From Eledone cirrhosa (Eukaryota), in the NCBI GenBank assembly GCA_964016885.1, contig OZ024740.1, positions 31,930,001 through 31,994,000 on the forward strand: a stretch of 64,000 bases of DNA, written 5' to 3'. This document shows positions 9,085 through 13,897 of the stretch, one piece after another (the stretch's first letter is position 1; the number at the start of each line of letters is the position of its first letter). A program made the translations under genes and the position numbers. The notes below the pieces were generated by a model. That model was not told where the DNA came from and ran no database searches. It saw only the letters and a program-made list of their open reading frames with translations.

Positions 9085-9427
9085 GGAGGCACATGGCTTA
9101 GTGGTTAGAGCATTGGCCTTGCAATCGAAAGGTTGTGAGTTCAATTCTCAGACCGGGTGATGTGTTGTTTCCTTGAGCAAGACACTTTATTTCACATTGC
9201 TCCAGTTTACTCAGCTGTAGAAATGAGATGATAGGACTGGGGTCCATATCATTCCACTGCAAAGTGGTCGTGTAGGCGCCACGGCAAAAAAGCACCCAGC
9301 ACTCACTGTAAATGAGGTTGGTGTTAGGAAGGGCATCCAGCTGTAGAAATCAAGCCAGAATCAGTTCCCATCCCACCCTTGCAAGCAGGGAAAAACAGAC
9401 GTAAAATGATGATGATGATGATGATAA
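9085..9427 (+). mobile_element. Young full-length tRNA-derived SINE (CORE-like domain), copy 2
   Basis: Pol III A box TGGCTTAGTGG, B box GAGTTCAATTC, CORE-like ccttgagcaagacacttt, then aggaagggcatccagctgtagaaa and an (ATG)n tail. Confidence 0.9.
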
Positions 9428-10446: not shown

Positions 10447-10616
10447 CTGAAAAATAAAAAGAGACAAAATATAAATAAAATTAGAATTCAAATATTCCAA
10501 ATACATTGTTATATATAAATTAGAAAATATATAGCTTTCACCGTATTTTTAACTAAAGGAATTTTAGCTTGATAACGGGGTTTAGAACCCTCAGATAAAT
10601 GGAAAAAGATGAGTAT

Positions 10617-10687
10617 TGACGTACATGGGAGTCGAACCCACATCTGTGGTTATCGCGACCACTGTGCTACCATTACACCAACACATC
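10617..10687 (-). tRNA. Second, inverted copy of the same tRNA-like cloverleaf
   Basis: Reverse complement of 10880-10950. Confidence 0.65.
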
Positions 10688-10879
10688 ACCCATCTCTTTC
10701 CATTCAAATTAGAAACTACATTCTTAGCGAGTTTAAATGGCAAGTAAGTATGTTTTGAAACAGTGAGCGAGTTTGAAATTAGAAAATATATAGTTTTCAC
10801 CGTATTTTTAACTAAAGGAATTTTAGCTTGATAACGGGGTTTAGAATGTAGTTTCTAATTTGAATGGAAAGAGATGGGT

Positions 10880-10950
10880 GATGTGTTGGTGTAATGGTAG
10901 CACAGTGGTCGCGATAACCACAGATGTGGGTTCGACTCCCATGTACGTCA
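10880..10950 (+). tRNA. tRNA-like cloverleaf (Gln-like D arm, non-canonical anticodon loop CGCGATA); pseudo-tRNA within a mobile element
   Basis: GATGTGT TG GTGT-AATGGTA-GCAC A GTGGT-CGCGATA-ACCAC AGAT GTGGG-TTCGACT-CCCAT GTACGTC A. All four stems pair (with G-U). A and B boxes are intact and a T5 run follows at 10960-10964. Confidence 0.65.
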
Positions 10951-11098
10951 ATACTCATCTTTTTCCATTTATCTGAGGGTTCTAAACCCCGTTATCAAGC
11001 TAAAATTCCTTTAGTTAAAAATACGGTGAAAGCTATATATTTTCTAATTTCAAACTCGCTCACTGTTTCAAAACATACTTAATTGTTATATATATATA

Positions 11099-11436
11099 AT
11101 CATCATCATCATCATTTCACATCCGCTTTTCCCTGCTTGCAAGGGTGGGACGGGAACTGATTCTGGCTTGATTTCTACAGCTGGATACCCTTCCTAACAC
11201 CAACCTCATTTACAGTGTGGGATGGGTGCTTTTTTGCCATGGCGCCACCATGACCACTTTGCAGTGGAATGATATGGACCCCAGTGTTATCATCTCATTT
11301 CTACAGCTGAGTAAACTGGAGCAATGTGAAATAAAGTGTCTTGCTCAAGGAAACAACACATCACCCAGTCTGAGAATTGAACTCACAACCTTTTGATTGC
11401 AAGCCCAATGCTCTAACCACTAAGCCATGTACCTCC
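11099..11436 (-). mobile_element. Young full-length tRNA-derived SINE, copy 3
   Basis: Collinear with 8666-9010 apart from a few substitutions. (CAT)n tail at 11099-11115. Confidence 0.9.
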
Positions 11437-13026: not shown

Positions 13027-13640
13027 AGTGCATTTTATCATAGCACCAAAACTAGACTCATTGCTTTGTCCCCTGCTGAGCTAAAGAGTGCTCTCTACCA
13101 TAGCACCAAAACTAGACTCGTTGCTTTGTCCCCTGCTGAGCTAAAGAGTGCTCTCTACCATAGCACCAAAACTAGACTCGTTGCTTTGTCCCCTGCTGAG
13201 CTAAAGAGTGCTCTCTACCATAGCACCAAAACTAGACTTGTTGCTTTGTCCCCTGCTGAGCTAAAGAGTGCTCTCTACCATAGCACCAAAACTAGACTTA
13301 TTGCTTTGTCCCCTGCTGAGCTAAAGAGTGCTCTCTACCATAGCACCAAAACTAGACTTGTTGCTTTGTCCCCTGCTGAGCTAAAGAGTGCTCTCTACCA
13401 TAGCACCAAAACTAGACTTGTTGCTTTGTCCCCTGCTGAGCTAAAGAGTGCTCTCCACCATAGCACCAAAACTAGACTTGTTGCTTTGTCCCTTGCTGAG
13501 CTAAACAATGCTCTCCCCCATAGCACCAAAACTAGACTTGTTGCTTTGTCCCCTACTGAGCTAAAGAGTGCTCTCTACCATAGCACCTAAACTAGACTCA
13601 TTGCTTTGTCCCCTGCTGAGCTAAAGAGTGCTCTCCACCA
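13027..13640. repeat. 60-bp minisatellite, ~10 copies
   Basis: The unit ctaaagagtgctctctaccatagcaccaaaactagacttgttgctttgtcccctgctgag repeats in exact 60-bp register. Confidence 0.97.
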
Positions 13641-13821: not shown

Positions 13822-13897
13822 GATGTATTATAGTAGGATAGAGTTAGTGATGTATCATAGTAGGATAGAGTTAGTGATGTATCATAGTAGGACAGAG
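13822..13897. repeat. 27-bp tandem repeat, ~2.8 copies
   Basis: gatgtatcatagtaggatagagttagt starts at 13822, 13849 and 13876. Confidence 0.9.

Follow-up and report, generated by a model that had tools for sequence, protein, structure and literature searches.

The window analysed here, a stretch of 64,000 nucleotides from Eledone cirrhosa (contig OZ024740.1), contains an insertion made of two inverted arms between short direct repeats (Table 1). We numbered its 259-nt unit in the tRNA-sense direction, with u1 at window position 10775 on the minus strand. The first arm is 330 nt long and holds 1.27 units (u189-259 followed by u1-259), close to the 1.25 tandem copies described in the first-pass annotation. 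That annotation also proposed a strand switch at a 4-nt microhomology into an inverted copy of 239 bp reading across the unit junction. We recovered both: the four nucleotides belong to the two arms alike, and the second arm runs from u52 to u259 and then from u1 to u31. The flanking repeats it noted, of 13 nt and ending in TA, are identical. The element begins with the last base of the left repeat, and TA makes up half of the repeat, which places the target duplication at 12-13 nt. The 71 nt duplicated within arm 1 differ at a single base, and the 208 nt over which arm 2 overlaps arm 1 are 100% complementary, so the insertion must be very young. This copy is atypical, as most arms of the family stop within the tRNA-like part.

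Table 1. Features of the insertion, in window coordinates.
Feature	Position	Strand	Basis
Left target-site duplication, ending in a TA run	10505-10517	+	sequence, repeat comparison
Arm 1, with 1.27 units head to tail; its outer end is of the 3' class without a tail	10517-10846	-	unit alignment
tRNA-like cloverleaf of arm 1, A58 equivalent at 10632	10617-10687	-	ARAGORN, Rfam RF00005
Microhomology joining the 5' ends of both arms, 4 nt	10843-10846	.	sequence
Arm 2, inverted copy (u52-259 and u1-31)	10843-11081	+	unit alignment
Purine-rich leader (u70-88), predicted 19-bp helix with the trailer	10861-10879	+	RNA fold; kept in four subfamilies
tRNA-like cloverleaf of arm 2 (u89-159)	10880-10950	+	ARAGORN, Rfam RF00005
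Pol III A box-like motif (u96-106)	10887-10897	+	sequence, compared with the consensus
Pol III B box-like motif/T loop (u138-148), A58 equivalent at 10935	10929-10939	+	
Family-wide 5'-truncation hotspot (u144-155)	10935-10946	+	begins just 3' of the B box-like motif/A58 equivalent
Pyrimidine-rich trailer (u162-180), with a T5 run at 10960-10964	10953-10971	+	sequence, fold
Tail of PLE type, 31 nt, on arm 2 only	11051-11081	+	definition as given in PMC8557442, consulted in part
Right target-site duplication	11082-11094	+	sequence, repeat comparison

Other repeats surround the insertion. Most of the window (13954-64000) is a 50-kb array of a 36-bp satellite, with about 1,390 copies, 94% matches and a GC skew near 0.69; at its edge lie ten copies of a 60-bp unit (13039-13640) and a short 27-bp repeat (13822-13897). 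Tandem modules of 48-50 bp occur at 2416, 6574 and 11917. Two weaker tRNA-like matches, at 11366-11429 on the minus strand (33.5 bits) and at 9094-9151 on the plus strand (28.1 bits), are probably the heads of a very abundant ordinary SINE.

Family, layout and helper search

The element is present in many copies, which sets aside a one-off rearrangement at this locus. A 24-nt motif of the tail has 892 matches with at most one mismatch in the 3.0 Gb genome, and a 24-mer lying just 3' of the T arm has 8,620 with at most two (reversed controls gave 0 in both cases; the counts are of arms, not of loci). We distinguished at least four subfamilies: the young A (259 nt), to which the window copy belongs, B (approximately 260 nt), C (approximately 290 nt, with a variant of 271 nt), and the older D. 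Within subfamilies, unit length (259, 271 or 290 nt) and unit junction are fixed. Pieces of the element also occur in contigs from runs labelled as three other organisms.

We described the layout of insertions from an unbiased set of all 69 loci with the exact tail motif between 18.7 and 387.5 Mb of one contig (C1). Of these, 45 are head-to-head palindromes, 17 have a single arm, and 7 are other or more complex arrangements. In a broader set of 157 loci, 100 are head-to-head and the tail of 30-40 nt is found on one arm only in 94 of them, on both in 3 and on neither in 3; most of the 157 were chosen by the tail motif, so the informative part is the rarity of loci with two tailed arms (3/100). 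An end of the insertion adjoins (TA)3 in 151 of the 157 loci, against 1057 of 5506 flank positions (19%). Partial tandems are common as well, with 78 tandem motif pairs genome-wide and three places with three such tandem junctions in a row. The insertions described as typical of Penelope-like elements (PLEs) by Craig et al. (PMC8557442, in the passages available to us) are partial tandems with inverted arms, a one-sided tail of 30-40 nt and microsatellite targets, and the one-tailed head-to-head partial tandems in (TA)n match this signature. The tandem and inverted PLE-type structure and the TA-rich targets expected from the single copy are thus borne out in the family, as is the lack of a simple-repeat tail. 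The prediction of variable permutation points is not. The outer (3') ends fall in two narrow classes, u249-259 (with some at u222-232) and u30-42, some 35-45 nt apart, like PLE pseudo-LTRs with their tail; both classes join the target (TA)n by microhomology.

One of the three places with three junctions in a row, at G000:C1:131458929-131465825, is an array of 25 units of the older subfamily that extends over 6.5 kb, with an inverted arm, a tail and PLE-type ends. Its units are mosaic rather than identical, like those of a nascent satellite, and its inverted arm matches no particular unit and is thus uninformative on the template. Copies often lie in (TA)n beside the ends of PLE families or other short palindromic elements, as seen in the flanks of L002, L111, L154 and L059, which suggests repeated nesting at the same microsatellites.

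Two other modes of dispersal were considered. TA-flanked palindromes make up most insertions and the junction of u149 with u149 recurs, as if a palindromic DNA element (a MITE or fold-back) had been copied from one master into TA sites. We find this scarcely credible. The two termini are unlike each other, junctions and arm lengths cover a wide range, a single arm is found in 17 of the 69 loci, and the recurrent junction is seen with three different bases at u225 (T, C and A). In 49 of 55 young loci the arms or units of one locus carry the same base at u225, where random pairing predicts 21.6. This pattern indicates that the palindromes are independent events rather than copies of a single master, and refutes the latter unless conversion between arms is near complete. 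Such conversion could contribute to the agreement within loci, but each palindrome likely arose during its own insertion, from a single template or source. The other mode, an ordinary LINE-dependent tRNA SINE with inversions produced by twin priming, would account for a tRNA head with A and B boxes and for the class of copies that starts at the tRNA 5' end. It seems very improbable to us: the element lacks a poly(A) or simple-repeat tail of its own, its one-sided tail, partial tandems and TA targeting are traits of PLEs, and both arms copy the same region while pointing apart, an overlap that largely refutes twin priming.

Mobilisation by the enzymes of PLEs is, in our assessment, highly likely. 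The genome is rich in these elements, with 10,597 GIY-YIG candidates—all 150 of the 150 scored were above the cut-off—and it contains long open frames encoding both reverse transcriptase and GIY-YIG domains; the clade to which we assign them is a guess from the CxxC finger alone. Young PLE families were seen at seven loci (L051, L053, L054, L058, L061, L062 and L070), some with long open frames (938 and 1,096 codons). Their 3' UTRs include minimal hammerhead-like motifs; in two of these the first core triplet is altered and stem III is palindromic. A comparison of the unit with 40 GIY-YIG loci gave no significant match pointing to a helper. Nor was there significant 3' similarity to any of six PLE 3' regions, of which one had ill-defined limits (18 comparisons, highest z 2.7). 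An 8-nt end common to the element and one PLE family was set aside as an AT-rich chance match.

The tRNA-like domain and the truncation of copies

The tRNA-like part (u89-159) was found by ARAGORN and scored 44.3 bits with Rfam RF00005 (cut-off of 29). The first-pass annotation was right to recognise a cloverleaf, and its placement in the middle of the unit depends on where the unit is cut. Read from the sequence, the domain has a Ser anticodon, but with G at position 33, T at position 37 and a short variable loop it must be a tRNA mimic rather than a working tRNA-Ser. Its A and B boxes are intact. The D arm resembles that of the tRNA-Trp(CCA) genes of the same genome: a degenerate D-arm pattern occurs in 68 places, which are 57 tRNA-Trp-like genes and 11 copies of the element. 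We treat an origin from tRNA-Trp as a lead only, since the pattern was partly designed with that isotype in mind and the overall identity is just 43 of 74 columns. The tRNA-Trp(CCA)-like genes form clusters at C4:353394860-353486302 (about 40 matches) and C4:277407618-277440846 (about 10). Genome-wide, the D-arm motif has 1,895 matches on the reverse strand and 1,089 on the forward one, whereas the trailer motif is evenly divided between strands; a one-strand array of a related sequence, with about 800 units, may lie behind this imbalance.

The predicted fold of the unit is better than that of 199 out of 200 shuffled sequences (z of -3.18) and places the tRNA-like domain within a 19-bp helix of leader and trailer. 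When the consensus sequences of subfamilies A and D are compared, three stems (acceptor, D and anticodon) have changed with pairing kept, and the leader-trailer helix has gained bases on both strands. Subfamily C has lost two pairs of the acceptor stem as well as pairs at the end of the long helix. These pair-preserving changes amount to no more than a handful of events between consensus lines.

The 5' ends of arms are strongly clustered. On the first passage through the unit, 61 of 101 arms stop at u144-155, in the T arm, compared with 3/106 and 0/41 in the flanking windows of 12 nt. Among the arms that survive, 10 of 37 stop at u82-96, and this cluster reaches no further upstream than u82; in family D, 13 of 24 stop at u78-110. 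The genome counts agree: the 8,620 matches just 3' of the T-arm stop fall to 2,984 just 5' of it (with motifs of different length), and in an independent sequencing run contig depth drops approximately fourfold across it, from about 240,000 to 66,000. An apparent cluster at u120-140 in the first long arms examined disappeared in an unbiased set of long arms. The first-pass annotation took copies that all begin at the tRNA 5' end as the mark of a standard SINE, and this is not the pattern here, as 10 of 128 arms start at u82-96. Its suggestion that the tRNA fold provides a Pol III promoter fares well: judged from the intact boxes and from 5' ends at u82-96 that fit a start of transcription, the element is likely transcribed by Pol III. 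The other role it gave to the fold, as a substrate for cuts by RNase P and RNase Z, would produce ends at u89 and u160, whereas the clusters lie at u144-155 and up to u82-83.

The A58 equivalent of the T loop (u144) lies at the upstream edge of the T-arm cluster (u144-145), and we compared subfamilies that differ at this position. In the 290-nt subfamily C, which keeps A58, 21 of 30 arms stop at u145-155 (arms from 26 loci; 4 of 30 rows were dropped, 2 as duplicates and 2 as earlier picks by the tRNA motif). In family D, where the 20 readable T loops all lack an A at position 58 (T58) and where the T stem and palindromes are retained, the stop at u144-155 is seen in only 4 of 37 arms, taken from 30 loci (Fisher's test, p ~1e-6, same search design). 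With one arm per locus, the contrast between A58 copies and family D is 33/50 against 3/26 (p = 7e-6). The comparison involves one family without A58, which is older, is also changed at position 59, and may have a different helper. A stop frequent in A58 subfamilies and rare in a T58 relative with the same stem leads us to infer a Pol III RNA carrying m1A58, a modification established as a stop for reverse transcriptases on tRNA primers (PMC11401796, in the part consulted). We consider m1A58 the likely cause of the T-arm stop, which had no counterpart in the first-pass annotation.

This reading carries two further assumptions. One is trimming, since most stops are at u149-154 and thus miss the expected u145 by 4-9 nt. 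The other is read-through by Pol III, many of whose transcripts should terminate at the T5 run conserved 10 nt beyond the tRNA, ahead of the part that is copied. The exact base of the stop, but not its occurrence, is set by the short palindromes at u149-157, because single-arm copies stop at the same place. Copies that read past u144 have no excess of substitutions there (8/228, the median position having 2.5%) of the kind left by read-through of m1A. This missing misincorporation signature, the concentration of stops in the 3' strand of the T stem (u149-154) and the difference of family D at two loop positions would all suit a PLE passenger whose T-arm break results from RNA structure, a bound protein or cleavage of the T loop. 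We hold such a cause to be unlikely, given that family D retains stem and palindromes and yet rarely stops, that the stronger 19-bp helix produces no comparable peak (3/110 at u180-191), and that the upstream edge of the cluster coincides with u144-145.

Templates and proposed mechanism

Arms already past one full unit rarely stop at the T arm (3/38, and 1/7 in a second set). The full 19-bp helix needs sequence upstream of the inferred start and can therefore form only in multimeric or circular RNA; its presence in long templates may be the reason why they escape the stop. Furthermore, the whole unit is inherited with each subfamily, which implies that templates longer than an RNA from u82 to the tail must exist. 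Array read-through and rolling-circle copying both fit the tandem data, as far as the genomic copies tell.

The first-pass annotation pointed to a circular or multimeric template. In the circular version, the main template would be an RNA circle of one unit, produced by tRNA-processing enzymes rather than by a hammerhead and reverse transcribed by rolling circle. It would fit the fixed unit length and junction within subfamilies, the frequency of arms longer than one unit and the lack of a T-arm stop on later passages; the 19-bp helix would juxtapose distant parts of the RNA, and animal retrozymes are known to form circles (PMC7229834, as far as its consulted sections go). Private variants are also shared now and then by successive units (22 of 249 rare variants in one set of loci; four variants at the locus L270), although local duplication or gene conversion, as at L004, would do the same. 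But approximately two-thirds of arms end inside the tRNA or at its 5' edge, as expected of a linear RNA from about u82, the break-points match neither of the RNase P and Z sites given above, and tandem source loci exist, including the 25-unit array of mosaic units. We therefore find it improbable that circles are the main template, and somewhat doubtful that they contribute at all.

The element is, in our judgement, probably a young, Pol III-transcribed and ribozyme-free repeat with a tRNA-like domain, copied by PLE enzymes and cut short at host m1A58. Under this model, the reverse transcriptase and GIY-YIG nuclease of a PLE would copy the element RNA into (TA)n. Both nicked target strands would prime reverse transcription, their TA annealing to AU-rich spots on the RNA, the first within the tail and the second some 37 nt upstream, and the two cDNAs would be joined at their 3' ends by a microhomology of 2-4 nt to give the palindrome. 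RNAs beginning near u82 would fold into the tRNA-like shape and methylated A58 would halt the enzyme; trimming would then shorten the halted ends as far as an AT or the overlapping short palindromes at u149-157. Templates longer than one unit, a minority arising from tandem read-through or circles, would lack the T-arm stop and yield arms of several units, as in the window copy, regenerating copies with an upstream promoter. Regeneration of this kind has been proposed for the Sm-alpha element of schistosomes (in the passages available from a review, PMC6765202).

A broader proposal is more tentative, and we lean slightly against it as a whole. Such repeats could form a distinct class of Pol III-driven, ribozyme-free counterparts of SINEs for PLEs, with an RNA matured by host tRNA enzymes and with thousands of copies that constitute a fossil record of m1A58. 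The mimic closed by the helix would then give rise both to a methylated linear RNA, source of dead stubs, and to a protected multimer or circle, source of the next active copies. This design may also explain the tRNA-related tandem repeats that stand as orphans in amphibians.

SINEs are, by the usual description, carried by LINEs, and TRIMp3 elements are Pol III passengers that depend on LTR elements. Beside these two, a tRNA-bearing PLE passenger would fill a third slot. If the stop is due to methylation, a host tRNA mark restricts a germ-line retroelement and DNA assemblies can report RNA modification. The insertion mechanism of PLEs, with its inverted arms and one-sided tail, is left unresolved in the passages of PMC8557442 at hand; with its 259 nt, its thousands of young copies and its built-in stop, the present template offers a compact substrate for testing it.

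Comparison with known systems

The element resembles several known systems, each in part. The closest in anatomy are non-autonomous PLEs of the MRC1 type, dependent on Chlamys elements (PMC8557442), which in the description available are likewise short and non-coding, with partial tandems, inverted arms, a tail of 30-40 nt at one end and microsatellite targets. According to the same source they generally share 3' sequence with their helper, whereas none was found for our element in the six PLE 3' regions compared; the tRNA-like domain is also its own and sets it apart from them.

Non-LTR retrozymes of animals, as presented in the portions consulted of PMC7229834 and of bioRxiv 10.64898/2026.07.22.740005, have AT-rich tandem units of 150-450 nt, long target-site duplications and a proposed dependence on PLEs. 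The element has units in this range (259, 271 and 290 nt) and a duplication longer than 4 nt (12-13 nt in the window copy). It differs from retrozymes by its tRNA-like domain and by the lack of a hammerhead on the RNA strand: the simple core of a type I hammerhead, one per unit, is absent from the RNA strand of subfamilies A, C and D, although the same search found it in 28 of 30 loci of a control. This agrees with the first-pass annotation, which supposed that the tRNA fold may stand in for a hammerhead. Rfam and a stricter hammerhead descriptor missed the control too, and so both carry little weight. A hammerhead-like motif antisense to the hairpin at u181-208 was rejected, being on the wrong strand, with a non-consensus core, and absent from C and D when searched with the same pattern. 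The control is a second non-coding family (L032:2440-2870 and L223-L252), with a 314-nt unit, the same tandem, inverted and one-tailed layout in (TA)n, and 2,676 candidates at first look; it is likely a non-LTR retrozyme. A stretch of 40 nt that it has in common with the element was dismissed as AT-rich chance (z of 2.9 in A, 0.8 in C and 0.0 in D).

The nearest precedent is Sm-alpha of schistosomes, except that it has a hammerhead. In the consulted description (the review PMC6765202), Sm-alpha and Sj-alpha are SINE-like Pol III tandem units in which the upstream unit drives the next one, as we propose here; they carry a hammerhead, and that description includes neither PLE-type anatomy nor a stop at A58. 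The repeats PolIII/TAN, OAX and Rana/polIII (PMC10702118) have tandem units of 250-360 nt with an internal tRNA-like part and no matching SINE; the likeness is one of description, their mobilisation mechanism not being given in the part of that source available. In the open literature we found no description of a tRNA-bearing, ribozyme-free PLE passenger or of a truncation linked to A58; a Repbase or Dfam consensus may exist under another label.

Among elements driven by Pol III promoters, the TRIMp3 group (Helenus, Ajax and Cassandra; PMC10886601, seen in part) is also non-autonomous, has a promoter derived from a small RNA and is not made of classical SINEs. These elements have LTRs, a PBS, a PPT, target-site duplications of 5 bp and LTR helpers, and ours, which has no unique internal part and repeats as a whole unit, would be their PLE counterpart. 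With classical tRNA SINEs it shares the tRNA part with A and B boxes, but the tRNA-head start is confined to the 10 of 128 arms given above, many arms having sequence upstream of it, and element ends do not show the poly(A) or simple-repeat 3' end of LINE type. The element is thus like SINEs and TRIMp3 in its promoter and like retrozymes in its layout, while departing from each in a defining trait, and we class it as a non-autonomous derivative of PLEs: a tRNA-bearing, ribozyme-free, SINE-like passenger.
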